The notes: generated from the sequence alone by a model not told the origin. Shown: positions 13,645-35,495, counted from the first letter of the stretch. The stretch is 64,000 bases of DNA from Candidatus Borrarchaeum weybense (GCA_019057385.1 JAHQJS010000004.1:448001-512000), one strand, 5' to 3'. Program-made: numbers and translations.

Positions 13645-14433
13645 TTAATTTGTTCTAGCAATTTGTCTTGTTAGAACCTCTCTTAGAATCATCTCTATAG
13701 GCATTATCACCCTTTTGACGGTTTCTGGTCGAGATTCTTTTTTAAGACGACCGTTATCAGCTTTTACTCTAGACGTGCTATCAGATTTCAGTAGTGTAAC
13801 CAAATCGTTTTTTGCATCCATACAACTCATTTCAATAATGCGTGAATGCGCGTCTCTCATTCGTTCGCTCCATCCCGTCTCAACAAGTAACTCCGATATC
13901 TGACTAACTGGGGTACGTACCTCCGTTGGAAGATCCATTTTATTCAAGCAGATCACGAAAGGCACGTCTTTAAGACCGTAGCTGTCGATAAATTCTGTGA
14001 GTTCCGTTAAGGCGCTTCTATTAGCCTCAAACTGTGCGCTTGTAGAGTCTAATATGATAATAAGTCCTTGGACGCCGCTTGTGACCACCTCTCTTTGTGT
14101 TATGTGGCGAAGTTGACCAGGGACGGTATAAATATGTGCTTTCAAGCGATCTTTGCCAGTCAACGGGTTATAACCAAAACCGAACACTCCGCGATCAAAA
14201 AACAATGTTCTCTTAGTTGGATCCTCAAGTGTGAGAAAGCTGTAAACGCGCTCTGGATCTTCTAAGGTTTTTAAAACTTTGAAGATAGTGAGTGCCATTG
14301 TCTTGCCTGCCATAGAAGCACCCCAGAACACTAGTTTAACTACTGGGACTTCATCAAAATCCTTTTTAAGATGTTCCAATGGTTTTCTGCCTCCAGTTCC
14401 TAAATATGGTTCTCTTGGAGAATTATGAGCCAA
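13645..14433 (-). CDS. MglA-like small GTPase
   Basis: G1 GASMAGKT, RTLFFD, YTVPGQ, G4 NKMD. Confidence 0.85.
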   Translation of the reverse strand: MAHNSPREPYLGTGGRKPLEHLKKDFDEVPVVKLVFWGASMAGKTMALTIFKVLKTLEDPERVYSFLTLEDPTKRTLFFDRGVFGFGYNPLTGKDRLKAHIYTVPGQLRHITQREVVTSGVQGLIIILDSTSAQFEANRSALTELTEFIDSYGLKDVPFVICLNKMDLPTEVRTPVSQISELLVETGWSERMRDAHSRIIEMSCMDAKNDLVTLLKSDSTSRVKADNGRLKKESRPETVKRVIMPIEMILREVLTRQIARTN

Positions 14434-18731: not shown

Positions 18732-18909
18732 CCTCGAATTTCTTAGTCATTGAAAAGGTTATAGAAGTTTAATTTTCAAATATTTCGTATTTCCCAGTAT
18801 TTCCAATATCTACTTATATTTCATATTCTTCGGGCTGTAATGAATAAGCACTACTAAGTTAAAAAGATGAGTGAAGTTCAAAAAAAATGGAAGAAAGACT
18901 GTTGTGTTC

Positions 18910-21900
18910 CTAAATCGCCTTACTTTTCGCGGTGTATCCCGATAATAACTCACTATTTATCAGTTCTATCAAATGGTCATTTGTCGACAGGATTCCTGTT
19001 AGATCTCTTCCTTTTACTGCTGGAGCTATGAGAACTTCTTCGCTATCTCGCGAAATTACATAGATCTTCGGATCAGGATAGTTTCTAACTCGGACATTTC
19101 CACGCTCTTGAAGTTGCCCTGCATCTTTCATATTAGCTTCAGCTAATTCTGTAACACATGTGACACGTATCGTTTTCTTAATATTTGATAAAGAATCTAC
19201 TGGTATATCTTCAAATTTTGGCGTTACTAAAATGAGATTTGCTTTTGTTCTGTCTATAATAGCCTTTATGTTGAAAAGGATATTTGCATCCCCAACCACA
19301 CGGTATGTCTGTTCAACTGGCAAAGGTTCTGCTTTTCTTGAAAGTTTTTGAATTGTGCCTAGCACACGGGCTGCCTTATTGCTTGCGGCTACCGCAGCTT
19401 CTAGTTCAGACGGGATTACATTGACCACTTCAGTTAATTCTTTTTCGATTCCTTCGACTCGATTAGTGACTATTTGGAGCAGTTCATCTTTGTGGGTAAC
19501 TACAGTGCCTTCATAGTTCTGAATTTGTGAAGAAGTTGTCTCAGATAATTTTTCATTAAGTTGTTTTGTTGCTGTTTCGACTTCTATGCCTAAATTCTCC
19601 AGAAATTCATTAATGTTGTCAATACTACTATATATGTTCTCGCGGTATTTTGTAGTTTGTACAGAGAGTAAATTAGAGAAGGATCCCTTAAAATCAACAG
19701 TTCCTTCAAGGATCGTTGTTGAAGGCCTTGATAAGAGTTGATCCAATCTTGTGATTATCTGCTCCAGTCGAGTATCAAATTTTGCAAGATAATCTTTCCC
19801 GCTGGCTATAAGTGCGTCTTTTAATTCGTCTACCTTTTGTTTTACGGATGTATTCGCTTGATCCAATATCTTATCGAATTTAGTTAGTATCGTCTCAATA
19901 TCTCCAGTAATTATCCCCTCTTTCTCCCCTAAAACGTCAAAAATGGTCTTTTTGATCTCAGAGATCTCGGAATCTGCTTCTTTGACTTTTTCATTTACGC
20001 TAACGGAAAGTGTATCAAGTTCTGTTGTAACCTCTTTAAGTTCCGTGGCTCCTTCTGTAGTTTTTTCTAACTTTTCAAGAAGGGCTTTTGCTTGAGGTTC
20101 AAACTTTTGTATGATATTCGAGTCAAGTTCAGCTAAAGTTGAAGCCGATTCATCTAATGTCCCTGATAGTTTGTTTAGCATATCTTCTGTCTCTGAAAGT
20201 TTGGTGTTAAGTGTTGAATTAAATCCCGATACTTTTTGAATAGTTTCTTCAAGTACATTCAATACAATCTCTGATAGATTCTGTTTCAACTCCATCAGAT
20301 GTGATGTCGAAGCACCTATCTTCTCCTCAGTTATTTTTTCAATTAAAGTTTCAACAGATTGTTCAGTTTCCGTTTTTCTTGTATTAATTTCGTCTTCAGC
20401 TTTTTCTTGTAACGCTGAGTTATTGCGTTCTATCTCTGCTCCCTTTTCGTTTAGGATAGTATTCGTATTCTCTTGTAGAGAATTTAAATTGCTTTCATTT
20501 ATTTCTTTAAGAGAGTTTGCTAGAGACTCAACATTCGTTTTTATCGTGTTGAGCAGTGAATCCTGCGCTGTTATCTCTTCAATGGTTCTTGTAGTTGTAT
20601 TCATTTTATGTTGTATCAAAGTAGATACAATCTTTTCTTCGTATTGAGAAAATGACTCGTTGAACTGTTCTACCCAACTATTGCTGGATTCGTGATTCGC
20701 GTCTCGAAGATTTTCAAGGATTTTAGTGAGGGCATCGCGTAAATTGGTCGTAAGTTCCTTCCTTTCATTCATGTTTGACTTTAATTGTGAATCTATTTGT
20801 TTTCCAGCCGTTTCTAAACTCTTAGTGTTTATAGTAGCTGTTTTTTGAATTTCTTCAAAAGCAGTTTTAGCCTCATTAAGTTTCTCGGTGAGTACTTTTC
20901 CAGCAGTATAGGTCATTTCATTGATCGCTTCTTTATTTTCTTCCAATCTGAGCACAACAGATTCTTTAGCCTCTGAATTATTGGTTTTTAAACCATTAGT
21001 GAAGCGTTCTAACGCATTCTCTATCTCTTTTTGAAAAGCACCTTGGAAGGTGGATGCAAAGTTTGAAACGATTGTTTCATAGGTTGTGTTCATTTTTTCA
21101 AAATTGGATTCGGCGTCTTTTTCTATGGTCTCCACTCTGTATGTCATATTTCGGCTAATATTATCCAATAGGGATGATACTCCCACCTCATACGCATCAG
21201 TATTCGTGTTTATTACATCTCTGACCTGTGCCCTCAATGACTGCAATTCCCCCTCCATTGATGCCAATTGATCCATAAATTCCTCTAATCCTGCCTTGCG
21301 CAAGCCGAATAAACTGCTGGCTTTTTCTTCGGTCTTCGTTTTTAAAACTTCAACGATAGACAAGAGTCGTCCAGAAGTGTCCGCGAAGCGTATGTCAAGT
21401 TGACTTATTCGATCCTTATGCTCCTCTAACTCTTTCTCGATGACATTTGGTACTTCATCTCTTATTCCCATGCTTTCTGTGAGCACATTGTCGATGAACG
21501 TTTTCATAAGTTCCATATTTTGCTTTTTTGACTCCTCCAGTTGTTTAAGCACATTTTGAGAGGTTTCCTCAATATGGACCGCAGTTTTTCCTTTTACATC
21601 TGTGAACTGCTTGTCCATATTTTTATTGCTAACCGAGAACATCTCTAAAAGATCTGTCTGGGTCTTTTCATTTGATTCTTTTAGTTTTCCGTGTTCTATA
21701 TTGAATTGTTCTTTAATTTGTTCTTGTGTTGTATCTATAGTTGTATTCGCTTTTGTGATCATTTCTGAGAGTGCTTCATCAATTTCTTTAACTATAGTTT
21801 GATTAGCATCTTTGACTTGTGAAATTGCTTCTTTTAATTGATCAGTTGTTTTTGTTAACAGGTCAGCATCCTTTTTTTCACTTTCTTCTAAAGTTTGAGA

Positions 21901-23508
21901 GATTAATTCCATATTTGCTTTAATTTCTGTGGTTATTTTTTCCTGGTTCTCTTCTGTTAACCTCGTAGCGTCATTAACAGAATTTTCAATAAGTACGTTC
22001 GTAGAAACAATACTATTATTCACAACATCTGATAATTCATATGCAAGAGTACTAAATCTCTCCTGTAAACGAGTGCTACCTTCAAAGAATTCTTCTAACA
22101 GTTGCTCCATCGATTGTCCAACAAGTTCGTTTACCTTACTTTTCGCATCTTTAATTGTTTGTGAAACCACATCTAAAAGCTCTTTTTGCGTTGTTTTCGC
22201 GTTTGAGGCATGTGACTTCAAGAGACCATCAAAATCACTTTTTAGTGAACTTATCTCAGTTAACATTTTGTTAAGGTTCTCACTAATTTCTTCCTTTAAC
22301 TGGTTCATCTTTGCAACAATATCGTCTCTCTCTGTATCTACAAATGTCTCTACTTGTGTATTAAACGCTTCAATCTGCGTTTTTATTACTTGATCAAGTG
22401 AAGTTACGGTATTACCAGCAACTTCAATTTTTGTTTTGATTATTTCAGCAAAAGATGATATTCCTTTTTTCGTTTTGTTTATAATTTTCGTATTTTTTTT
22501 CTTTAGGTCCTTAATAACAGCCTTAACTTCAGCGAGTGAACTTTTTAACATACCACTGCTTTCATCTTTGAAGGTCGTGAGTTTAGTATCTATATTTTGG
22601 AGCTGTTCATTAAATGAATTGGAAATATTAGAAAGAAGTGTATTGAGTTTTTCCTTAAACGCGTCAATAGATGAAATCGTAATGTTTTCTGTTTTTTCTT
22701 TAGCATCCGTAAATCCAGTTGTATAAACCTGAGTTAGGTTGGTCAGCGTTTCACTAGCATCTTTCTTAAATTTTTCAACATCCTCTACATCTGTCTCCTC
22801 AGTACTTTCAAGAAGCTGTTCGCTCTTTTCTTGGAAGCGTGTAACGTTTGCTTTCCAATCATTTATTTGTTCTCTAATGGCTTCTGCCAATTGTTCGTTT
22901 AGTGTCTGCATTTCGACTTCAAATTCGTTTGAAGTATTATCTAATGCATCAAATAATGTATCTTTAAGTCCGGTCAACGTCTCTTCAAACGCGGTATAAT
23001 TATCTTTTAAGGTGGTTGTTATTGTTTCTCTATTTTGATCCGCATCAGATTTGACGTGCTCGCCGAAATCCATTGAAATTGAATCAATCTGTTCTTTGGT
23101 TACATCAACGTTTTTCTTGAATTCTTCAAGATGTTCATTAATTACTGCAGATGTAGATTCCTGGAATCCTTGAAGTTGCGATGACAACGCGTTCTTGACT
23201 TCATTCCATTTAACTGTTATCTCGTCGCGTACATTTGACAGTCTTTGCGTGAGATCTTCTTCGACTTTTTCGCTTAAAACGATTCGTGGTTCCATAGCTA
23301 CCAGAATGTCCACTTTACCTGGAATCCGACGTATTAGCCCCTTCTGTTCAAGTGCGATCAAATTACTTTGTATTTCTGGAAGAGGGTCTCCTGTATAAAG
23401 AACTAATTCCTCTAATGTTTTCGCTCCTAAACCAACGATTGTTTCGTAAATTTTTCTTTCAATTTCATTGAGCCCGATTAATTCGTACACTTCTTCTGCA
23501 TTAAGCAT
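18910..23508 (-). CDS. TrmB-like protein (N-terminal wHTH, C-terminal PLD-like domain) with ~1300-aa helical/coiled-coil insertion
   Basis: 'IGLNEIERKIY...TLEEL.....LEQKGLI....AMEP'; C-terminal 'AKANLILVTP'-like strand and 'SRDSEEVLIAP'; heptad-rich middle. Confidence 0.7.
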   Translation of the reverse strand: MLNAEEVYELIGLNEIERKIYETIVGLGAKTLEELVLYTGDPLPEIQSNLIALEQKGLIRRIPGKVDILVAMEPRIVLSEKVEEDLTQRLSNVRDEITVKWNEVKNALSSQLQGFQESTSAVINEHLEEFKKNVDVTKEQIDSISMDFGEHVKSDADQNRETITTTLKDNYTAFEETLTGLKDTLFDALDNTSNEFEVEMQTLNEQLAEAIREQINDWKANVTRFQEKSEQLLESTEETDVEDVEKFKKDASETLTNLTQVYTTGFTDAKEKTENITISSIDAFKEKLNTLLSNISNSFNEQLQNIDTKLTTFKDESSGMLKSSLAEVKAVIKDLKKKNTKIINKTKKGISSFAEIIKTKIEVAGNTVTSLDQVIKTQIEAFNTQVETFVDTERDDIVAKMNQLKEEISENLNKMLTEISSLKSDFDGLLKSHASNAKTTQKELLDVVSQTIKDAKSKVNELVGQSMEQLLEEFFEGSTRLQERFSTLAYELSDVVNNSIVSTNVLIENSVNDATRLTEENQEKITTEIKANMELISQTLEESEKKDADLLTKTTDQLKEAISQVKDANQTIVKEIDEALSEMITKANTTIDTTQEQIKEQFNIEHGKLKESNEKTQTDLLEMFSVSNKNMDKQFTDVKGKTAVHIEETSQNVLKQLEESKKQNMELMKTFIDNVLTESMGIRDEVPNVIEKELEEHKDRISQLDIRFADTSGRLLSIVEVLKTKTEEKASSLFGLRKAGLEEFMDQLASMEGELQSLRAQVRDVINTNTDAYEVGVSSLLDNISRNMTYRVETIEKDAESNFEKMNTTYETIVSNFASTFQGAFQKEIENALERFTNGLKTNNSEAKESVVLRLEENKEAINEMTYTAGKVLTEKLNEAKTAFEEIQKTATINTKSLETAGKQIDSQLKSNMNERKELTTNLRDALTKILENLRDANHESSNSWVEQFNESFSQYEEKIVSTLIQHKMNTTTRTIEEITAQDSLLNTIKTNVESLANSLKEINESNLNSLQENTNTILNEKGAEIERNNSALQEKAEDEINTRKTETEQSVETLIEKITEEKIGASTSHLMELKQNLSEIVLNVLEETIQKVSGFNSTLNTKLSETEDMLNKLSGTLDESASTLAELDSNIIQKFEPQAKALLEKLEKTTEGATELKEVTTELDTLSVSVNEKVKEADSEISEIKKTIFDVLGEKEGIITGDIETILTKFDKILDQANTSVKQKVDELKDALIASGKDYLAKFDTRLEQIITRLDQLLSRPSTTILEGTVDFKGSFSNLLSVQTTKYRENIYSSIDNINEFLENLGIEVETATKQLNEKLSETTSSQIQNYEGTVVTHKDELLQIVTNRVEGIEKELTEVVNVIPSELEAAVAASNKAARVLGTIQKLSRKAEPLPVEQTYRVVGDANILFNIKAIIDRTKANLILVTPKFEDIPVDSLSNIKKTIRVTCVTELAEANMKDAGQLQERGNVRVRNYPDPKIYVISRDSEEVLIAPAVKGRDLTGILSTNDHLIELINSELLSGYTAKSKAI

Positions 23509-23522
23509 TATCCAATCTCCTC

Positions 23523-25829
23523 TTATTTGCTCATTTCTCGTGAAATTTCATCAATTGATTTCTTAGCATCATTAAAATCTGTTTGAACTGGTTTCTTCAG
23601 GCGATCTAGTTCCTTACCGATCCGTTCCACACTATTAGAAAGTTCCCGTAAGGATCGTGTCAATGAATTTAATTCTTCTTTCAATTTGTCTTTATCTTCA
23701 TTTATTGCTGATGAATAAGTGTTTGTTAGATCTGTAAGTTCTTTCTTCGTCCCCTCTTTTTGCCCCTCAAGTGTCTTGGACACATTTTGACTCATTTCGG
23801 TGTTAAATCTATCCAGTTTTTCGGTCTCAGCTAGAAGAACATCCAAGAGTCCCTTCTTAGAATCTTCAGCTAAAGATGTCAATTTAGAGATGGTGTCTTC
23901 TAATTGAGAATTCAATTTTTCCTTTGTTGTGTCCTGCATGTTTGCATTTGCCGTGGTTATACTATTAATCCACTGAGAAACCTGTTCTTTCATCATATCG
24001 CTATGTTCTCTGGTGGCGTCGCTATGTTCCTTTGTAGCTTCATTATTCTCTTTTAGTGCATTACTATGGCTTTCGGAGATAGTCTTTAGCTGAATTCTAG
24101 TGCTGTCATTAATATCTTTGTTTATTGTATTTACTGTAGTATTCATAGCATCATCACTATTTTTAAAGCGGTCATTAATTTTCTCTTTGATCACTGTTAG
24201 CGCTTTAGATACATCTGTAACTGTTCCATTCAAAGCATTTGTAAGATTGTCATTATGAGTTGTCGTTTCCGATTTGTAATTCTCCGAAATACTTGTTAAT
24301 TCCTGAGCAACAGTTTTTTCTAACTCTTCGGTAGCGTTTATGAAATTATTTTTATGAGAATCCAAGGATTCTGTCATATTTGTCTGTAGATCGGTTGTTG
24401 TCGCTTCATGGGTTTGTTTTTGTTCGTTTAATGAGTTAAGCGTATTTTCTTTGAGCCCATTCATTTTAAGTTTAAAATCTTCCATGGCTTTCATTAGGAA
24501 TTCTTCAGTTTCTGCCTTAATCTTCTCTACGTTATTTTTGTGGGCTGAAAGAGTGTTATCTACTATTGTTATGAAGTCCCCTTCATAAGATTCGCAGACT
24601 TCTGCTACTGTAGCAATATTTTCTAAAAAGGCTGTTCGCATTTGCGAGTTTAGGTCGTGAATTAGTTCCTCGATCCGTGTTAAGATATCTTTAATGCCTG
24701 TTTGCATCTGATCTTGGGTAACTTCAATTGTACCTTCAATATTTTCAAGACTTTTAACCAACTTTTCACTGAAAGCTAATTCAAGTTCTTCTTTCTTTTC
24801 GGCAAATTGCTGTTCTTGAAAACTCATTAACTCAAAGGCTTTTTTCATCATGCCGGTTTCTAATTGGGTTTTCACTTCACCTATTTTTGTTTCGAGAATA
24901 TCTGAGAGAAGGCTCTCCACTCCAGCAATAACTTCATTATATGTTTCCTTATGTGTTTCAAAAGTTTGTGATGAGTCTGCTTTTGTCTTTTCAATACTTG
25001 TAGAAAACTGAGATCGCTCGTTTTCAAGAAGACTTTGCAGAAGTTCTTTGATAGAATCTGCTTGCTGCATAAGTATGTTTATAGATTCCATAATCAGAGT
25101 ACTCGATGCATTTTTTTTGCCTTCAAGCATCTCTGAAAACTGAACAGATTTCGCCTCTAACTCGTTTATCAAGTTTTCTCGCGTATCATTAAAATTAGTC
25201 GAAAGTTCTGTGTATTTTTGCGTCAATTGTGTGCTTATTCCTTCGTCATGATTCTTGAGGAGTTCTGTAGAAGTCTCATTAACATTCTGAAGTATATCTA
25301 CTATTTTTTGATGGAGTTGGTCATTAATTTGATTCTGTGTAGTTAGAAATTCACCAAATTTCTCTGTTGCTTCTTGTACCATCCCTTGTGAATCATTTTT
25401 CATCTTTGTAACATTTTCATCGAAAAACGTAAGTCCTGCCTGTTCTTCTTTTAGTGCAGCGGTAAATTGACTGGTAACATCATCTATCTGGGGCATGAAT
25501 TTGAGTTCTTTAAGGATTCCTTTTAGTTCTTCAACCTCTTTAGATATTTCTGAAATTATGGCTGTTTTTGCGTCATCTAGTTTTAGCGCGATCTCCTCTT
25601 GCATAGTAGAATTTTGCTTCTTTAAATTCTCTTGGATCTCCTTTGCGTCTTCTTCTATCTTATTTTCGCCTTCCTGAAAAACCTTTTCTCCAGTTGATTT
25701 GATTTCTTCATATCCCGACGAGAGTGTCGAATTAAATTCACCAAATTGCTCCTCAAAGGACTTCGAAATTTTATCAAGATCTTTTCTAATCGATTCCAAC
25801 CTTGTTAGGGCATTTTCTACCTTTGACAT
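23523..25829 (-). CDS. All-helical coiled-coil/apolipoprotein-like protein
   Basis: 768 aa, E/K/L/T-rich, almost no Pro, no TM, no ATPase motif. Confidence 0.65.
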   Translation of the reverse strand: MSKVENALTRLESIRKDLDKISKSFEEQFGEFNSTLSSGYEEIKSTGEKVFQEGENKIEEDAKEIQENLKKQNSTMQEEIALKLDDAKTAIISEISKEVEELKGILKELKFMPQIDDVTSQFTAALKEEQAGLTFFDENVTKMKNDSQGMVQEATEKFGEFLTTQNQINDQLHQKIVDILQNVNETSTELLKNHDEGISTQLTQKYTELSTNFNDTRENLINELEAKSVQFSEMLEGKKNASSTLIMESINILMQQADSIKELLQSLLENERSQFSTSIEKTKADSSQTFETHKETYNEVIAGVESLLSDILETKIGEVKTQLETGMMKKAFELMSFQEQQFAEKKEELELAFSEKLVKSLENIEGTIEVTQDQMQTGIKDILTRIEELIHDLNSQMRTAFLENIATVAEVCESYEGDFITIVDNTLSAHKNNVEKIKAETEEFLMKAMEDFKLKMNGLKENTLNSLNEQKQTHEATTTDLQTNMTESLDSHKNNFINATEELEKTVAQELTSISENYKSETTTHNDNLTNALNGTVTDVSKALTVIKEKINDRFKNSDDAMNTTVNTINKDINDSTRIQLKTISESHSNALKENNEATKEHSDATREHSDMMKEQVSQWINSITTANANMQDTTKEKLNSQLEDTISKLTSLAEDSKKGLLDVLLAETEKLDRFNTEMSQNVSKTLEGQKEGTKKELTDLTNTYSSAINEDKDKLKEELNSLTRSLRELSNSVERIGKELDRLKKPVQTDFNDAKKSIDEISREMSK

Positions 25830-25832
25830 TTT

Positions 25833-27560
25833 CTAATTCTCCTTCTTAGGTTCTATAACTATTTTTTTTGCAAGTTTATCAAACTCTTTTCGATATAATT
25901 CATTGTTTATGGATTCTCGAGCCTTTTGACAAACTTTTTTTGCTCTTGCCCCCTCATTCGCTGTCTTGTAAAGTGAATAAGCACGCCTATAAAATAAGCG
26001 AGTAAAAGCGTCAAATGACTCTGCAGCGTATACATCTCCAGCTTCCTCATATAACATTGCAGCGTTCCTCGACAACGCGTTCCTTTTCCACTCGCTTCCT
26101 ATTTTATCATAAAGCCTTGAACCATTTGCAAGAAACTTGCGTGCATAATAGGGTTTTTTAGCCTTTGAAAATCTCTTGGCCATCTCATCACATAAAAGAG
26201 CTGCACGTTCAAAATCCTCTATTTTTTCAAAAATTTCTGTGGCATTTGAGAAAAGCACAAAGGCTTCATAAAACATTTCATGTTCCATTAAAGCTTCACC
26301 CATGGTGCTATAAGATTCTGCAATTTCTGTAAGAATCGGCGTTTCACGTTGGGCGAAAGCAATATTAGTCAATTCATCTAATTTCTCCTTAATCGGAGTA
26401 TCTGGTCTTTTTCCTGCACCTATTGATTCTTTAAACAAATCCAAAAGTATATTTGCTCTTCCAAAGATATTCAATCGTTCAGATGTTCTCTTTAATGTTT
26501 GAAAAAGAAATTTAGATGAAAAATAGACGAAGGTATTTTCTACCACTAGAAGTTGTTTTTCTTGCAGATCATTCAAGATAGTACTTATATCGTTTTTTAA
26601 ATCAGAAGTAGCTTCTAGTTCTGACAAAGTATCTAAATTTTCTTTTCGTGAGGCAATATTTTCAAGTATTTTAAGTTCCTCATCATGTAAATCAAATATA
26701 TCAACTATATTTTCATTTAGAATTGCATCTTTGCATTTATTCCAGACATTTTCTTCTATTGATGCGTTTTCTCTGTTTTCATAGAGATAACTAGTCGCTA
26801 AAGTTAGAACAAAGGGGACTCCTCTTCCTGCTCGAATAAGTTTTTCTTTCACATCTTTCGAAATAGTTATCTCATTTTTTGTTTCAACTCGTTTTAAAAA
26901 TATCTCCGCTTCTTTTGAACTCATCTTTCCAAGGGAGAACATTTCAAGATTTGATTCCAAGTTCTGTGAAGGGATATATTTCATAAACTCATCAGTAATG
27001 GAAAATATAATTATAATATTGTATTTTTTTTCTTTCAATTCTTTTAAAATTTCAATCAAAATATGATAAGCGTTTTCAAAATCTCTAATTGCAAAAAATT
27101 CCGTATCATCGACTAGAAACATAGCCCAGGTTTTTTGCGACTCCAGTTTTTCCTGAACATCGTCTAATCCTCGAAAAAATTCATCAATATACTCTGAGAG
27201 TACTTCAGATGTTGTAGTCGTTCCTTTAGGTAGCGGAAGCATATCAAAATCTGCTTTCTTCGAAAAACGTTTTTTCTTTTCGGGCACGAGAGCTACTATT
27301 TGACTTTTTAAGTCAGCAAAAAAACTCTCGACGGTTCCTGGGGTGATTGTTTTATAAATAGTCTGGAAACGCTCTATCTGCGCTAACTCCTGAAATTTCA
27401 TCAACGTAAGACTCTTACCCATACCCCTCTCACTACTAAGAATACCTCCTCGTTTTTCTTCGCTTCCTGTCTTAATTTTTGTTAAAAAGTCTCTAAATCG
27501 ATTTATTTCGTCTGTTCTTCCTGTGAATAACTCAATATTGGATATTATGGCGTTTTCCAT
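25833..27560 (-). CDS. STAND/AAA_16-type P-loop ATPase with wHTH and C-terminal TPR/SNAP-like repeats
   Basis: FTGRTDE, Walker A SERGMGKS, Walker B FLVDD, GxP motif 'GRGVPF', helical repeats 'EAFVLFSNATEIFEK', 'AAMLYEEAG'. Confidence 0.7.
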   Translation of the reverse strand: MENAIISNIELFTGRTDEINRFRDFLTKIKTGSEEKRGGILSSERGMGKSLTLMKFQELAQIERFQTIYKTITPGTVESFFADLKSQIVALVPEKKKRFSKKADFDMLPLPKGTTTTSEVLSEYIDEFFRGLDDVQEKLESQKTWAMFLVDDTEFFAIRDFENAYHILIEILKELKEKKYNIIIIFSITDEFMKYIPSQNLESNLEMFSLGKMSSKEAEIFLKRVETKNEITISKDVKEKLIRAGRGVPFVLTLATSYLYENRENASIEENVWNKCKDAILNENIVDIFDLHDEELKILENIASRKENLDTLSELEATSDLKNDISTILNDLQEKQLLVVENTFVYFSSKFLFQTLKRTSERLNIFGRANILLDLFKESIGAGKRPDTPIKEKLDELTNIAFAQRETPILTEIAESYSTMGEALMEHEMFYEAFVLFSNATEIFEKIEDFERAALLCDEMAKRFSKAKKPYYARKFLANGSRLYDKIGSEWKRNALSRNAAMLYEEAGDVYAAESFDAFTRLFYRRAYSLYKTANEGARAKKVCQKARESINNELYRKEFDKLAKKIVIEPKKEN

Positions 27561-27793
27561 ATTATCTCTCCACCATTTCCTATACTTACATACCTAGGAC
27601 TTTCATTCATTCATCACATAATAATTTCATGATTGATTATTATTAGCATGCTGTCGCGCGCGATAAACTCACCAAAATGGTATATATGCTCATCGCTATA
27701 ATGTATTCAATTGTTTTTCCGTAGGCTTCAATGAAACCTAAATATGCTTTTACAATTAGTTTGCCACTTCAAATCACTTAGGAGGCATATTTC

Positions 27794-28832: not shown

Positions 28833-30308
28833 GTGTCTCAGAGTCAAGTACCAACTCGGATCCTTATGTTTACGTCCCCAGATTGTGCTTATTGTCCTTC
28901 AGTTGAGAAACTTTTACAGCGCACAATAGGTTTTGGAAGTGTAGCATTTGCTCACGTCTCTACAATAGATATTAATGAGAATCCTGAGCTAAAGACAAGG
29001 TATAAAATTAAATCACTGCCCACTTTGATAATAAATGATGAAAAGGTTCTTAGCGGTCAGATCACCGAGGGCGAAGTTCAGAATGTGCTCTGGAACAAAT
29101 TGGTTACCACGATTTTAGAACGCGAAAAATCGTATGATATGCGAAAAGAAACTATGCTAGCAATCACAACCAATACACTTTCTTCAGCGCTCGAACTTCA
29201 ACTTGTTCGACCAAGCATTGGAGACTATACTCATATTGGAGCACTGCAGAAAACAACTTTTTCAATATTAGGGTTAGATGTTTTAGCAACACGCTTATTT
29301 TATGAAGCAGGTAAAGATTTAGGCTTATATGGTGCAGATTCTCACCTCCTCTTAAGTTTAAATCCTAAAATCGGAGCTGAAATCAGATCTATCGAAAAAC
29401 GCTTTAAGCACGTGATCGACGGGATACGTATTTTCTTTAATAGACAAACCAGTAATCTCCCCACGTATTTCAGCGATAGAGTTGATATAGTTAGCCTAGA
29501 GGATGATGAAGCCGTGATCCGTGTCTATGAAACTGCATCTTCTACACAAGCTATGGACATTGGTGAACCTCTTTGTCATTTCACTGCTGGCGAAATGGCT
29601 GGCATGATCGAAGCGTTACTTGCAGAAAGTGTTACAGTTCGAGAAACGGCATGTTGGGGTACTGGAAACCCATATTGCGAGTTTTACATAAAACTTGCTG
29701 GAGAAAAAGAGAAGCCTTATCCTTTACCAAAAAAACGAAAAGATAGACCTGAAAGATTTAAGCAACTGATTGATCGCTCAATGCGTCTTGCTTATGATTC
29801 TATCTTCATGAAAAGAAAAATGCGTCCAAATACAGGAGATTACCTGCACCTTGGGGTGCTCCAACAACAACTTACATCACTTAAACTCTCTGATCCGTTT
29901 ACAGGAAGTTTACTTTACGCAGCAGGACACCAACAAGGTTTAAATAGCCCTGAAATTGAATTTATTAACCGAATTAAAAATAAATCTGCTGAAATTGGAG
30001 ATATGGAGTTCTTAGAGGCTTTGAAAGTCTTACGAAACTTCTACAATCACCCAAGCTCATTTCTATCACGTGAACATGGCAAGGTTCGTTCACGAAATTT
30101 ACGAAAAGAAAGTGCTTCGCTTATAATCTATGAACTCGCTTCTGCTACTGCAACTCCAAATGCTGGGGTTAATTTTTGTGATTTCGAAACCGGTAAAATT
30201 GCTGGTCTTTTTGAACGATTAACTGGACAAAATATTGTTGCCAACGAATCAAAATGCTGGGGTTTAGGTAATAATTTTTGTGAATTTGACGTCAGCAAAG
30301 TGGACTGA
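28833..30308 (+). CDS. Thioredoxin-like domain fused to two V4R domains
   Basis: CAYC thioredoxin; two 'C.F..G..AG..E.L.....E..CWG.G...CEF' repeats. Confidence 0.8.
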   Translation: MSQSQVPTRILMFTSPDCAYCPSVEKLLQRTIGFGSVAFAHVSTIDINENPELKTRYKIKSLPTLIINDEKVLSGQITEGEVQNVLWNKLVTTILEREKSYDMRKETMLAITTNTLSSALELQLVRPSIGDYTHIGALQKTTFSILGLDVLATRLFYEAGKDLGLYGADSHLLLSLNPKIGAEIRSIEKRFKHVIDGIRIFFNRQTSNLPTYFSDRVDIVSLEDDEAVIRVYETASSTQAMDIGEPLCHFTAGEMAGMIEALLAESVTVRETACWGTGNPYCEFYIKLAGEKEKPYPLPKKRKDRPERFKQLIDRSMRLAYDSIFMKRKMRPNTGDYLHLGVLQQQLTSLKLSDPFTGSLLYAAGHQQGLNSPEIEFINRIKNKSAEIGDMEFLEALKVLRNFYNHPSSFLSREHGKVRSRNLRKESASLIIYELASATATPNAGVNFCDFETGKIAGLFERLTGQNIVANESKCWGLGNNFCEFDVSKVD

Positions 30309-32097: not shown

Positions 32098-32992
32098 TTC
32101 CTTAAAAAAAGAAAAAATTGAATGGGTTTTTTGTATCTCACTTTTCTTCGGGTGGTGGCTTTTTACTAGTTTTTTTAGAACTTGCTTTAGTTTCCTTTGG
32201 TGGTACTTTTTTAAGTTCATCTTCCATTTCTGCAACGTCTTCAGCGTCCTCAGGTAACTCCTCTGGAACTTCTTCTATCGTTTCCATCGCATATTTCTCG
32301 CGTTGCTTTTTCTTTTGACGTTTGGTCCATACAAGTGGAACTACAACCATCACTACGGCTAGCCCAATCATGAAGTACAGGTTCAGTGCATAGGTGCCGG
32401 TAAGATTGAGCCATTGAGGAACGGCAACACCTATAGTAAGTCCTGCGGCTGTCGCTGCACCGGTGCCGGCTGCGGCCACACCAAAATTGAGTAACCCTGC
32501 TTCGGTTAAGACCGTCATGACATCGGCGGCTTCCCCTTGTCCTGTGCCTAGGGCTGATGCCAGTTTTGAGACCACGTTTTTCTTTGCTTCCGCGAGGATG
32601 CCAATCGCTTTCGTACTGGATGATTTCAGCGCGTTGCGATATTCACGTATGAGGTCCGCTGTGAGTAATCCACACCCAGGGCATACCTCAGGTGCTGACC
32701 ACTTTGCCGCACATTTCGGACAATTTGCCATGCGCCGGACTTTATTCTTAATTGCTCGTGCGAGCTTTGATAGAATCCTATTTCTCGCTTCTGAGGACAA
32801 TTTACCTGCTGCAAAGTTCTGCAAACTGCCTGTTGCACCAAATAGTGATCCCGGACCCAGTGAAGCGGCTGAGGGTACACCACTCATAAATGAGGGAAAT
32901 ACTCCTCCTAGCTGTAATCCTGTAGCAACTACAGCCACACCCGCAACTGCTGTCACACCGACGGTTGCCTGTCCTGCGGGAGTACTTAACTG
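32098..32992. repeat. 895-bp direct repeat, copy 1 (copy 2 at 33899-34793)
   Basis: Identical by eye at offset 1801; shadow ORFs in the ORF track are identical. Confidence 0.9.
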
Positions 32993-33661
32993 TTTACTTA
33001 GTTTGTCAGTAGCTGAAGTGTCTGTCTTTTCACCGGTTTCGGGATCTATAGTATACCAGTCCTGCACATTGACATCAACCGCCATCTCTGCGACTTCTTC
33101 TTCTACTGCCTGCATTGTAGACATTTGTTCGGCTTGGGCACTAGCACTCGGTGGAGAACCTCCAACTGCATATGTGATGTAAACCGTTATTTCAAGGAAA
33201 CCTGTGTAAATCGGATCCGGTACACTGTATCCTGCAGCTTCAGCTTCAGCTACCACATCTAGAGTTTGATCGTATACAACTGTATCAGGAGTGTTGGCTG
33301 GAAATGTTTGATCGACGATATAATTACCTTCTGCTGGATATCGGTAAATCGATCCTAATCCTGACACGAGTTCTACGGTCGCATAAAAGTCCTGTACATA
33401 GACGGCTTGTGGTCCAGTTCCTGCTACTATCCTGATGTTTAGTGGTTCAAGTCTGCCCTCATCCGTTATGTCGAGTCTAAATTCACCAGCGGTTACACCT
33501 GTCCCTGCAACTAGTTCATCGTTAAAGTAGAGATAATATCTGAAAGGTGGTACAGTTGTATCCTGAGACGCTGCTGGTGTCGTAGCAACTAAGAGAAGCA
33601 TTAATCCTAGAAATCCGAAGAATAAATAGCGTGATATTACACCTCTATTTCGTTTTGACAT
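32138..33661 (-). CDS. Signal-peptide membrane protein, paralog A (ectodomain + TM + Zn ribbon + TMs + charged tail)
   Basis: N-terminal signal peptide, CPKC..CPGC, hydrophobic segments. Confidence 0.7.
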   Translation of the reverse strand: MSKRNRGVISRYLFFGFLGLMLLLVATTPAASQDTTVPPFRYYLYFNDELVAGTGVTAGEFRLDITDEGRLEPLNIRIVAGTGPQAVYVQDFYATVELVSGLGSIYRYPAEGNYIVDQTFPANTPDTVVYDQTLDVVAEAEAAGYSVPDPIYTGFLEITVYITYAVGGSPPSASAQAEQMSTMQAVEEEVAEMAVDVNVQDWYTIDPETGEKTDTSATDKLSKQLSTPAGQATVGVTAVAGVAVVATGLQLGGVFPSFMSGVPSAASLGPGSLFGATGSLQNFAAGKLSSEARNRILSKLARAIKNKVRRMANCPKCAAKWSAPEVCPGCGLLTADLIREYRNALKSSSTKAIGILAEAKKNVVSKLASALGTGQGEAADVMTVLTEAGLLNFGVAAAGTGAATAAGLTIGVAVPQWLNLTGTYALNLYFMIGLAVVMVVVPLVWTKRQKKKQREKYAMETIEEVPEELPEDAEDVAEMEDELKKVPPKETKASSKKTSKKPPPEEK

Positions 33662-33898: not shown

Positions 33899-34793
33899 TT
33901 CCTTAAAAAAAGAAAAAATTGAATGGGTTTTTTGTATCTCACTTTTCTTCGGGTGGTGGCTTTTTACTAGTTTTTTTAGAACTTGCTTTAGTTTCCTTTG
34001 GTGGTACTTTTTTAAGTTCATCTTCCATTTCTGCAACGTCTTCAGCGTCCTCAGGTAACTCCTCTGGAACTTCTTCTATCGTTTCCATCGCATATTTCTC
34101 GCGTTGCTTTTTCTTTTGACGTTTGGTCCATACAAGTGGAACTACAACCATCACTACGGCTAGCCCAATCATGAAGTACAGGTTCAGTGCATAGGTGCCG
34201 GTAAGATTGAGCCATTGAGGAACGGCAACACCTATAGTAAGTCCTGCGGCTGTCGCTGCACCGGTGCCGGCTGCGGCCACACCAAAATTGAGTAACCCTG
34301 CTTCGGTTAAGACCGTCATGACATCGGCGGCTTCCCCTTGTCCTGTGCCTAGGGCTGATGCCAGTTTTGAGACCACGTTTTTCTTTGCTTCCGCGAGGAT
34401 GCCAATCGCTTTCGTACTGGATGATTTCAGCGCGTTGCGATATTCACGTATGAGGTCCGCTGTGAGTAATCCACACCCAGGGCATACCTCAGGTGCTGAC
34501 CACTTTGCCGCACATTTCGGACAATTTGCCATGCGCCGGACTTTATTCTTAATTGCTCGTGCGAGCTTTGATAGAATCCTATTTCTCGCTTCTGAGGACA
34601 ATTTACCTGCTGCAAAGTTCTGCAAACTGCCTGTTGCACCAAATAGTGATCCCGGACCCAGTGAAGCGGCTGAGGGTACACCACTCATAAATGAGGGAAA
34701 TACTCCTCCTAGCTGTAATCCTGTAGCAACTACAGCCACACCCGCAACTGCTGTCACACCGACGGTTGCCTGTCCTGCGGGAGTACTTAACTG
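33899..34793. repeat. 895-bp direct repeat, copy 2
   Basis: See copy 1. Confidence 0.9.
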
Positions 34794-35495
34794 GTCTCTT
34801 AATCGTTCGGTAGATGATGTATCTCTCCGTTCGCCATCTTCATATATATACCAGTCCTGGACATTCACTTGAACGTCATCTTGTGCTACTGTGTAGCCTT
34901 CTGCATCTACCTGCTGTTGCGTTTCATATCCTTCTCCAAAAGATAAGGCAGAACTGTCTAAAGTTTGGGCCGTAGCTGCTGGTGGAGGTCCTCCGACTCG
35001 ATATCTGATAAATATCGTGAGTTTAAGGAAGCCGGTGTAGATCGGATCTGGCAAGTCGTATCCCAATTCCTCAGCAGTCGCGAGTATGCGTAGGGTTTGG
35101 TCATAGATCACTGTATCGGGTGTATTTGCAGGAAGCAGTCGTTTTATAGGATAATTACCTTCTTGTGGATATCTAATTGTTACTCCTGTTCCCTCTATAA
35201 GTTCTACTGTCGCATAAAAGTCATGTACATAGACTTGTTGTGCCCCTGTTCCGGCTAAAATCTTAATGTTGACTGGCTCAAACCTGCCGTCATCTTCAAG
35301 ATCTAATTTAAACTGTTCAGCAGGAACATTTGTTCCCGCTACCAATTGATCGTTTAGATAAAGATACCATCTGACAGTTTCTGCTTGCGTTGTTTGCTGA
35401 GACATAACTGGTGTCGTGGCGAATAAAAGGAGTGCGAAGCCTATAAACCCAAAGAAGAGAACGCGAGACAATAAATCTCTATTTCGCTTTAACAT
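33939..35495 (-). CDS. Signal-peptide membrane protein, paralog B
   Basis: Same architecture; C-terminal ~284 aa identical to paralog A. Confidence 0.7.
   Translation of the reverse strand: MLKRNRDLLSRVLFFGFIGFALLLFATTPVMSQQTTQAETVRWYLYLNDQLVAGTNVPAEQFKLDLEDDGRFEPVNIKILAGTGAQQVYVHDFYATVELIEGTGVTIRYPQEGNYPIKRLLPANTPDTVIYDQTLRILATAEELGYDLPDPIYTGFLKLTIFIRYRVGGPPPAATAQTLDSSALSFGEGYETQQQVDAEGYTVAQDDVQVNVQDWYIYEDGERRDTSSTERLRDQLSTPAGQATVGVTAVAGVAVVATGLQLGGVFPSFMSGVPSAASLGPGSLFGATGSLQNFAAGKLSSEARNRILSKLARAIKNKVRRMANCPKCAAKWSAPEVCPGCGLLTADLIREYRNALKSSSTKAIGILAEAKKNVVSKLASALGTGQGEAADVMTVLTEAGLLNFGVAAAGTGAATAAGLTIGVAVPQWLNLTGTYALNLYFMIGLAVVMVVVPLVWTKRQKKKQREKYAMETIEEVPEELPEDAEDVAEMEDELKKVPPKETKASSKKTSKKPPPEEK

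Follow-up and report, generated by a model that had tools for sequence, protein, structure and literature searches.

Results

Organisation of the operon

We analysed a 64,000-nucleotide stretch of DNA, hereafter the window, from Candidatus Borrarchaeum weybense (GCA_019057385.1), an Asgard archaeon with a 4.18-Mb genome. The window covers positions 448001-512000 of contig 4 (JAHQJS010000004.1), and window coordinates are counted from its first letter. It contains an operon of three open reading frames (ORFs), all on the minus strand: an ATPase gene at 25833-27560 (575 aa), a gene for a long helical rod at 23523-25829 (768 aa, hereafter the mid protein), and a gene for a much longer rod-containing protein at 18910-23508 (1532 aa, hereafter the giant). 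The gap between the ATPase and mid genes is 3 nt and that between the mid and giant genes is 14 nt. The original prediction, made by a model from the DNA alone, had proposed these three closely spaced minus-strand genes as a candidate new system, and the same ORFs and spacing were obtained when the sequence was re-read. Close copies of the giant carry the label Promethearchaeota.

The 5' leader (27561-27600, minus strand) has a Shine-Dalgarno-like GGTGGAG 7-8 nt upstream of the ATPase ATG, and the start of the giant, the third gene, is preceded by a similar GAGGAG. Oligo-T runs end transcription in archaea. A run of eight T residues lies at 18880-18887 (minus strand), 23 nt past the stop codon of the giant, and is a probable transcription stop. 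No transmembrane-like segment was found in any of the three proteins (highest 19-aa Kyte-Doolittle mean, 1.1) and no P-loop family was matched in either rod by a Pfam scan, in agreement with the original description of rods that lack an SMC Walker motif and of proteins that lack membrane segments. Among public runs, no RNA data carrying the operon were found; the 20 data sets that do carry it are metagenomes of sediment, soil or marsh, in contig form.

The ATPase

According to an AlphaFold2 model and its fold matches, residues 1-350 of the ATPase (26511-27560, minus strand) would form a nucleotide-binding oligomerisation module composed of a P-loop domain, a helical lid and a winged helix. Residues 351-575 with the stop codon (25833-26510, minus strand) would form a helical-repeat (TPR, SNAP-like) sensor, as judged from the model and from the full-length alignment to the structure 6mfv. 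The motifs listed in the original prediction (GR..E, SERGMGKS, VDD, GxP, a winged helix-turn-helix and repeats) were all found: the protein has FTGR..E, SERGMGKS (Walker A), FLVDD (Walker B), RGVPF, a winged helix and C-terminal helical repeats. In Pfam, AAA_16 and AAA_22 were matched, both below threshold. The model, built from a 12-orthologue alignment, has a pLDDT (predicted local distance difference test) value of 87.9 and consists of the P-loop domain, the lid and the winged helix, then 9-10 paired helices, with the sensor repeats spanning residues 350-565.

A Foldseek search with this model gave as its top match the Pyrococcus STAND-TPR protein 6mfv, aligned over residues 7-574; further matches were Avs3, Cdc6/Orc1, sso1545, PAB2304, SAMD9 and NLRs. 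In VIA-align, MalT (8bob) was first, with a Z of 17.9 over residues 7-369, and ORC/Cdc6 and NLRs came next. NRC2, NLRP3 and Apaf-1 were also among the structural matches, and the neighbours of the ATPase in the protein atlas were nSTAND1 and AAA_16 clusters. The model and the MalT and 6mfv fold matches bear out the assignment to STAND-like ATPases with a TPR sensor, and strongly support the view that the product of gene 1 is a putative nucleotide switch of the STAND type, in which a nucleotide-binding domain, a lid and a winged helix precede a sensor of helical repeats. Conservation across 12 ATPase orthologues extends to the Walker A pattern GxGK[ST] and to Asp151 of Walker B; in the genus of the window, Ser stands in place of the first Walker A Gly.

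The sensor alone had a single match among natural structures, gamma-SNAP (2ifu; residues 361-569, Z 13.1, root-mean-square deviation (rmsd) 5.0, 186 residues aligned), and the family profile of the ATPase matched Sec17/alpha-SNAP weakly (E 0.006). Both values are within the chance range of helical repeats, and the resemblance to SNAP is a lead, not a membership. A complex prediction for the sensor (residues 350-575) and the central block of the mid protein (residues 300-470), made with these two fragments only, scored 0.08 against a mark of 0.32, a value that speaks neither for nor against binding.

The two rods

The mid protein (23523-25829, minus strand), an orthologue of which is encoded next after the ATPase in 26 loci, is a headless rod. 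It is all-helical by composition and by hydrophobic periodicity, as had been claimed. In the giant, the helical stretch between the end domains is about 1,270 residues long, and it ranges from about 950 to 1,570 residues in orthologues of 1176-1812 aa. Its N-terminal arm (residues 79-676; 21481-23274, minus strand) has a period of 3.66 and would be about 90 nm long as a helix. Its C-terminal arm (residues 801-1345; 19474-21108, minus strand) was delimited by periodicity and length balance.

In both rods the hydrophobic period is 3.66-3.68, that is, 11/3, the value of a hendecad. The hydrophobic phase runs unbroken for 230-370 residues at a stretch: it is constant over residues 331-700 in the mid protein and over stretches of 230-350 residues in the giant. 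The core is narrow, occupying positions a, d and h, about 3 of every 11, which are often Thr or Ser, and the surface is acidic, with a net charge of -55 in the mid protein and -90 in the giant. These features strongly support the prediction that both rods are straight, non-supercoiled coiled coils of uninterrupted 11-residue repeats.

In Pfam, the rods match Apolipoprotein A1/A4/E, with 72.7 bits for the mid protein and 89.9 bits for the giant (cut-off 90), and in PADLOC and NCBIfam both also match the coiled-coil tails of ZorA profiles. These matches arise because the rods are a pure 11-residue repeat. The apolipoprotein matches raise the idea that the rods are membrane or lipid-surface proteins, whose 11-residue amphipathic helices would lie flat on a membrane in the manner of apolipoprotein, perilipin or synuclein and would tether or coat the membranes of Asgard protrusions; the 11/3 periodicity is indeed that of lipid-surface helices. 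However, the hydrophobic stripe covers only about 3 of 11 positions and is rich in Thr and Ser, the polar face is strongly acidic and lacks the Lys belt of class A helices, and the strict balance of the arms, described in the next section, points to helix-helix pairing. Since a narrow stripe on an acidic helix and balanced arms both argue against binding to a lipid surface, we consider this role most unlikely.

Conserved central blocks

Each rod has one conserved block. In the mid protein it spans residues ~340-430 (24540-24812, minus strand), contains an invariant Glu416 and is the sole conserved stretch in an 11-orthologue alignment. In the giant the block, or apex, spans residues 677-800 (21109-21480, minus strand), is conserved in an alignment of 11 giants and contains a basic loop with Gly as well as a conserved Pro. 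A profile-profile comparison of the two blocks gave a probability of 42%, from which no homology is claimed.

Both blocks obey a midpoint rule. In 25 of 26 mid orthologues (425-773 aa), the centre of the block is at most 5 residues from the midpoint of the protein (r = 0.999, slope 0.97); the start codon of the one exception is doubtful. In 19 giants (1176-1812 aa), the offset of the block from the midpoint between the end domains is constant (r = 0.9986, slope 1.02), mostly -20 to -33 residues and -42 in the shortest giant. Since separate length classes, six or seven at the least, all follow the rule, what one arm gained or lost by insertion or deletion has been matched in the other. Only pairing of the N-terminal arm with the C-terminal arm predicts such a balance. 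Thus, the sequences strongly support the idea that in both rods the N- and C-terminal arms would pair with each other.

The two centres are of different kinds. That of the giant has a Pro, missing in one clade, and an FG(K/L) loop across orthologues, together with a break in the periodicity, and the model of a 1176-aa orthologue also has a helix break there. That of the mid protein has no excess of Gly or Pro, and the hendecad phase continues straight across it. Mirroring of the dips in hendecad amplitude about the mid centre gave a mean z of 0.47 in 14 orthologues.

The TrmB-like end domains of the giant

The giant begins with a TrmB-type winged helix (residues 1-78; 23275-23508, minus strand), of which residues 11-74 match PF01978 at 30.9 bits (cut-off 25.6). 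In a phmmer search the winged helix found TrmBL2 (5bqt and 5bpd, E 2.4e-4) and TrmB (3qph, E 0.005). The giant ends with a PLD-like domain of the TrmB/TrmBL2 type (residues 1346-1532 and the stop codon; 18910-19473, minus strand), which was assigned by fold. With this C-terminal domain alone, a sequence search of solved structures gave no meaningful match, a feature search of the protein atlas gave no usable match, and a word-based homologue search gave relatives at 85% identity or more only.

The fold scores of the C-terminal domain were measured on a model of the 1176-aa orthologue and not on the window protein. VIA-align placed TrmB 2f5t at Z 15.2 (rmsd 2.2, 121 residues aligned), 3qph at Z 14.9 and TrmBL2 5bpd at Z 12.9; the part of 2f5t that is matched is the first subdomain of the TrmB effector domain. 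The sequence match at one end and the fold match at the other uphold the original description of a winged helix, a rod and a PLD-like domain in one protein. The chain of the giant stops after the PLD-like domain, as in TrmBL2, and the sugar-binding subdomain of TrmB is absent.

The domain also fits nucleases of the PLD fold, namely NucT (Z 14.0), Nuc and Zucchini (Z 11.6-14.0). In 14 orthologues, a Glu, a Pro and an Arg-Asp pair are invariant and a Glu-Glu pair is nearly invariant, but neither the catalytic His-x-Lys-x4-Asp (HKD) motif nor any conserved His was found. Sequence conservation and the modelled fold strongly support a predicted non-catalytic PLD-like domain of the TrmB/TrmBL2 type.

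TrmBL2, a protein of the nucleoid, builds stiff filaments and causes SMC to stall (PMC11840125; PMC4158304). From the models it is strongly supported that the giant would be a TrmBL2-type protein in which some 1,270 helical residues with a conserved, helix-breaking centre stand in for the pairing helix of about 35 residues.

Distribution and inheritance

The ATPase, used as a query, was found in one copy in 17 of 41 relatives, and its profile found a single copy in 85 of 400 Asgard genomes. Its presence is all-or-none by family: 31/31, 11/12, 6/6 and 4/4 genomes in some families versus 1/135, 0/19 and 0/14 in others. All of the first 10 loci, and most of the 20 read after them, have the order ATPase-mid-giant, tightly packed; the loci with this order come from about 15 Asgard families. 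Synteny across Asgard/TACK genomes was one of the checks that had been proposed for the system, and across Asgard genomes it came out in favour: the genes co-occur and their order is kept across many families. Since this order recurs in the loci of other Asgard families, the operon is not a product of chance.

On the ATPase tree, each family with at least two rows forms one clade, and the number of label changes is 14, the possible minimum, against a shuffled mean of 22.2. The tree strongly supports vertical inheritance as the probable mode for the module. Among 1.84 billion representative proteins, about 37 full-length clusters (50% identity) were found, and the named ones are Hod-, Hel- and Promethearchaeota; this strongly supports the idea that the module is probably specific to Asgard archaea. 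A locus of a different history was also seen. In the sole positive among the 135 genomes of its family (L028; G247:C11:67500-80000), the giant gene comes first, then the ATPase gene and then the mid gene. Its ATPase is placed with another family in the tree, so its module may have been acquired by lateral transfer as a whole. In another locus (L041:6122-12501, genome G100), the ATPase-mid pair is followed by an ORF of more than 2,126 aa that matches none of the four domain profiles of the system.

The same genome as the window encodes two more proteins composed of a TrmB winged helix, a rod and a PLD-like domain, both standing alone, with no ATPase neighbour: one of 1913 aa on contig 6 (L045:5846-11587) and one of 606 aa on contig 4 (L046:5038-6858). 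Other Asgard genomes have 2-6 such matches each, in open frames of about 330 to 1,545 aa. TrmB with a hendecad insert is, as judged from these sequences, a putative Asgard protein family of which the giant of the operon is one member. Divergent from the 1913-aa paralogue, at L045:11738-12895 on contig 6, lies a gene for a 385-aa protein of several winged helices. In Pfam it matches E3_UFM1_ligase (24.2 bits, cut-off 23.2), PCI and, weakly, DDRGK, and it may be an archaeal UFL1/UFBP1-like protein.

Flanking genes and alternative functions

Ordinary genes lie at the flanks of the operon: dapA, a leuA-like gene, a thioredoxin-V4R fusion and an Arf-family GTPase. They are not kept beside the orthologous operons, and the downstream 386-aa gene has no counterpart there. 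Among the loci read, none linked actin, tubulin or ESCRT genes to the operon. Rfam and tRNA scans of the window found no RNA genes. The GTPase (13645-14433, minus strand) has 262 aa and matches the Arf family of Pfam at 27.6 bits (cut-off 22.3); it is a eukaryote-type signature protein, typical for Asgard genomes. The V4R fusion (28833-30308, plus strand) has 491 aa, in which a thioredoxin/glutaredoxin-like domain is fused to two V4R domains, and it sits between dapA and the leuA/homocitrate-synthase-like gene. Tandem ORFs of 507 and 518 aa at 32138-33661 and 33939-35495 (minus strand) have no Pfam match.

The flanks bear on the possibility that the operon is a transcription regulator, in which the giant would be a repressor or activator of the TrmB family and the rods and the ATPase would relay a signal mechanically or by sequestration. 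The head does belong to the TrmB family, and MalT, the best structure match of the ATPase in VIA-align, is a ligand-switched transcription activator. However, no regulon partner is obvious, since the genes on either side are not kept. That and the missing effector subdomain, the one that binds sugar in TrmB, argue against a simple regulator. The Tyr with which the TrmB family reads DNA is also missing, as described in the Discussion, and a length-balanced rod of 1,270 residues is without precedent in a simple regulator. This alternative is unlikely.

Another possibility is a STAND antiviral conflict system, in which the TPR sensor would detect an invader, the PLD-like domain would be a nuclease effector and the coiled coils would act as in Zorya, Lamassu or CoCoNuT. 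Its grounds are the Avs3, NLRs and nSTAND1 clusters among the structural neighbours of the ATPase, the fold that the C-terminal domain has in common with NucT, Nuc and Zucchini, and PADLOC matches to ZorA, LmuB and LeoB. Those PADLOC matches are confined to the coiled-coil tails of the profiles, however, and no MotA-like membrane part is present. The PLD-like domain lacks the HKD motif, and a gene set that is single-copy, all-or-none by family and congruent with the tree is unlike patchy defence genes. CoCoNuTs require McrB/McrC and hardly occur in archaea (PMC11090510). Because single-copy genes passed on vertically, a PLD-like domain that is inactive and neighbours of a housekeeping kind, such as dapA and the leuA-like gene, all argue against defence, we regard this function as very unlikely, and the defence option of the original prediction is not retained.

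As to named systems, identity with ZorA, LmuB or LeoB was rejected, since the PADLOC hits are matches of coiled-coil composition and the proteins have no hydrophobic segment; identity with CoCoNuT was rejected, since the operon has no McrB/McrC and archaea have almost no CoCoNuTs. The CoCoNuT paper is the closest literature match for a long coiled coil with PLD, and it describes unrelated McrBC systems (PMC11090510). That the operon matches no named system, as first stated, holds for PADLOC, Pfam, NCBIfam and the literature searched; full-text searches, whose coverage leaves out most subscription journals, found no description of the operon. The best explanation of these results is that the module is neither a defence system nor a metabolic regulator.

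Discussion

In this study, we found that an Asgard operon combines a STAND-type ATPase with two hendecad rods. Our favoured reading, to which we give somewhat less than an even chance, is that the products form an ATPase-switched scaffold of hendecad rods with its head most likely on the nucleoid, and that this is a vertically inherited three-protein structural module of Asgard archaea. The architecture of the module is well supported; its function we infer. Judging from the sequence, the giant would fold back at its centre to give an arm of about 90 nm, and by analogy the fold-back would place its two end domains, the N-terminal winged helix and the C-terminal PLD-like one, side by side in a head resembling TrmBL2. 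For the mid protein, whose helix would continue unbroken across the centre, an antiparallel dimer about 114 nm long is most likely, the conserved block being the site of its dyad. The ATPase sensor would recognise a conserved rod block, and nucleotide-dependent oligomerisation of the ATPase would switch the assembly of the rods. With the head most likely on the nucleoid, as the analogy with TrmBL2 suggests, the module would act as a scaffold under the control of the ATPase and would space or bridge chromatin. In this proposed mechanism, attachment to DNA, which is drawn from analogy, is the weakest step.

Several observations weigh against the scaffold on the nucleoid. The first concern the DNA tether that the original prediction had included, which the winged helix does not bear out. 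According to a review, Tyr50, with Asp51, is the DNA-reading residue of the TrmB family (PMC4158304). In the giant of the window, Tyr50 of TrmBL2 aligns with Gln47, which is followed by Ser48, and none of 21 giant orthologues has a Tyr at this position, which varies among them. The recognition helix ranges from acidic to neutral, and the winged helix as a whole carries a net charge between -5 and +3. Since Tyr50 is missing and the winged helix is not basic, anchoring on DNA follows from family membership only. The second concern the trio itself. Three families have no separate mid gene, and there a single rod protein, about 1,100 aa long and PLD-like at its end, is encoded after the ATPase; one family keeps the ATPase-mid pair with the giant 8-17 kb off. 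These variant loci indicate that the trio is not obligate. The third concern the switch. The residue that follows the Walker B Asp varies (D/N/S/C) across 12 ATPase orthologues, and in the ATPase of one family (L016:6111-7820) the Lys of Walker A is replaced by Arg (GSGRTS). Because of these substitutions, some lineages may have slow ATP hydrolysis or none, and the switch with Arg may no longer handle nucleotide normally. The last concern the shape of the giant. Its length-balanced arms and its conserved, helix-breaking centre would fit an intramolecular antiparallel coil with a central hinge. The full-length model of the 1176-aa orthologue is poor (pLDDT 55.7), with usable end domains, so the fold-back rests on the length balance, and an antiparallel dimer of giants would fit this balance equally.

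Because the recognition helix is altered, a role off DNA is a serious rival, and we consider it possible though doubtful. In that case the operon would encode a cytoskeletal or cell-architecture scaffold in which the rods form hendecad filaments or struts, like coiled-coil proteins of the Scy/FilP type in actinobacteria, the TrmB-like head is an end piece that binds protein or ligand, and the STAND ATPase controls assembly. The pure hendecad periodicity resembles the repeats of Scy and FilP, and the loss of the DNA-reading Tyr from a winged helix that is not basic agrees with such a role, as do vertical single-copy inheritance and the two paralogues of 606 and 1913 aa that have no ATPase neighbour in the same genome. 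Nevertheless, the head retains both TrmBL2 domains and has sequence similarity to relatives that bind DNA, no filament-forming feature was found besides the coiled coil, and the loci read have no link to actin, tubulin or ESCRT genes.

If the scaffold on the nucleoid is taken to its full extent, the module would be a chromatin-anchored coiled-coil skeleton of Asgard archaea. TrmBL2-like heads would sit on DNA, the tips of the ~90-nm fold-back arms would be cross-linked by symmetric rods of 60-115 nm, and the STAND ATPase with its SNAP-like sensor would assemble and dissolve the lattice. We think this rather unlikely. If true, the lattice would be a prokaryotic forerunner, in logic, of the nucleoskeleton and of the SNAP- and ATPase-driven remodelling of helical bundles. 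Asgard archaea are the nearest known prokaryotic relatives of eukaryotes, and the organisation of their chromatin and cell interior is central to the origin of the nucleus and the cytoskeleton. Several Asgard families have the module in all, or almost all, of the genomes sampled, and about 2,900 codons go into its two rods of tens to a hundred nanometres and its dedicated nucleotide switch together. No counterpart exists among described SMC, cytoskeletal, regulatory or defence systems. If the link to DNA fails, the module would still be a new class, a hendecad-based cell scaffold under the control of a STAND ATPase. The midpoint rule predicts the position of the fold or dyad and which blocks bind. 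Since the proteins are predicted to be soluble and have no membrane parts, the module should be directly testable.

Comparison with known systems

STAND-TPR NTPases such as MalT (8bob), 6mfv and Avs3 (8dgc) share with the ATPase a P-loop domain, lid, winged helix and repeat sensor, and the Walker A and B motifs. Unlike them, the Asgard ATPase has no fused effector or DNA-binding output domain; it has a SNAP-like sensor and giant-rod partners, and forms its own small clade of about 37 clusters. In the alpha/gamma-SNAP and NSF system, as here, a SNAP-like helical repeat is encoded with an ATPase and adjoins long helical-bundle proteins. However, the present ATPase belongs to the STAND proteins rather than to the double-ring AAA+ proteins of the Cdc48/NSF type, the rods are unlike SNAREs, and the resemblance is weak.

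Scy and FilP of Streptomyces are very long coiled coils with hendecad-containing repeats, whose periodicity is near 3.64-3.67. Their likeness to the rods is in the hendecad periodicity, and no sequence relation is claimed. To our knowledge, neither Scy nor FilP has a TrmB head, a partner ATPase or a conserved block at its centre. In the case of Zorya, the MotA/ExbB-like membrane domain of ZorA is absent from the rods.

SMC, Rad50 and MukB resemble the putative architecture of the giant in that terminal globular parts are united by a long antiparallel arm with a conserved centre and length-balanced arms. They differ in that the giant has no split ABC ATPase head but a separate STAND ATPase, its termini are a winged helix and a PLD-like domain, its repeats are hendecads and not heptads, and there is no kleisin. 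TrmBL2 (5bpd, 5bqt, 5box) and TrmB (3qph, 2f5t) differ from the giant in having a pairing helix of about 35 residues where the giant has about 1,270 hendecad residues and the central block. Unlike them, the giant has no Tyr50, shares its operon with a STAND ATPase and another rod, and is restricted to Asgard archaea. The order of parts is nonetheless the same, an N-terminal winged helix, a helix and a non-catalytic PLD-like domain, and like TrmBL2 the giant ends after that domain, with no sugar-binding subdomain.

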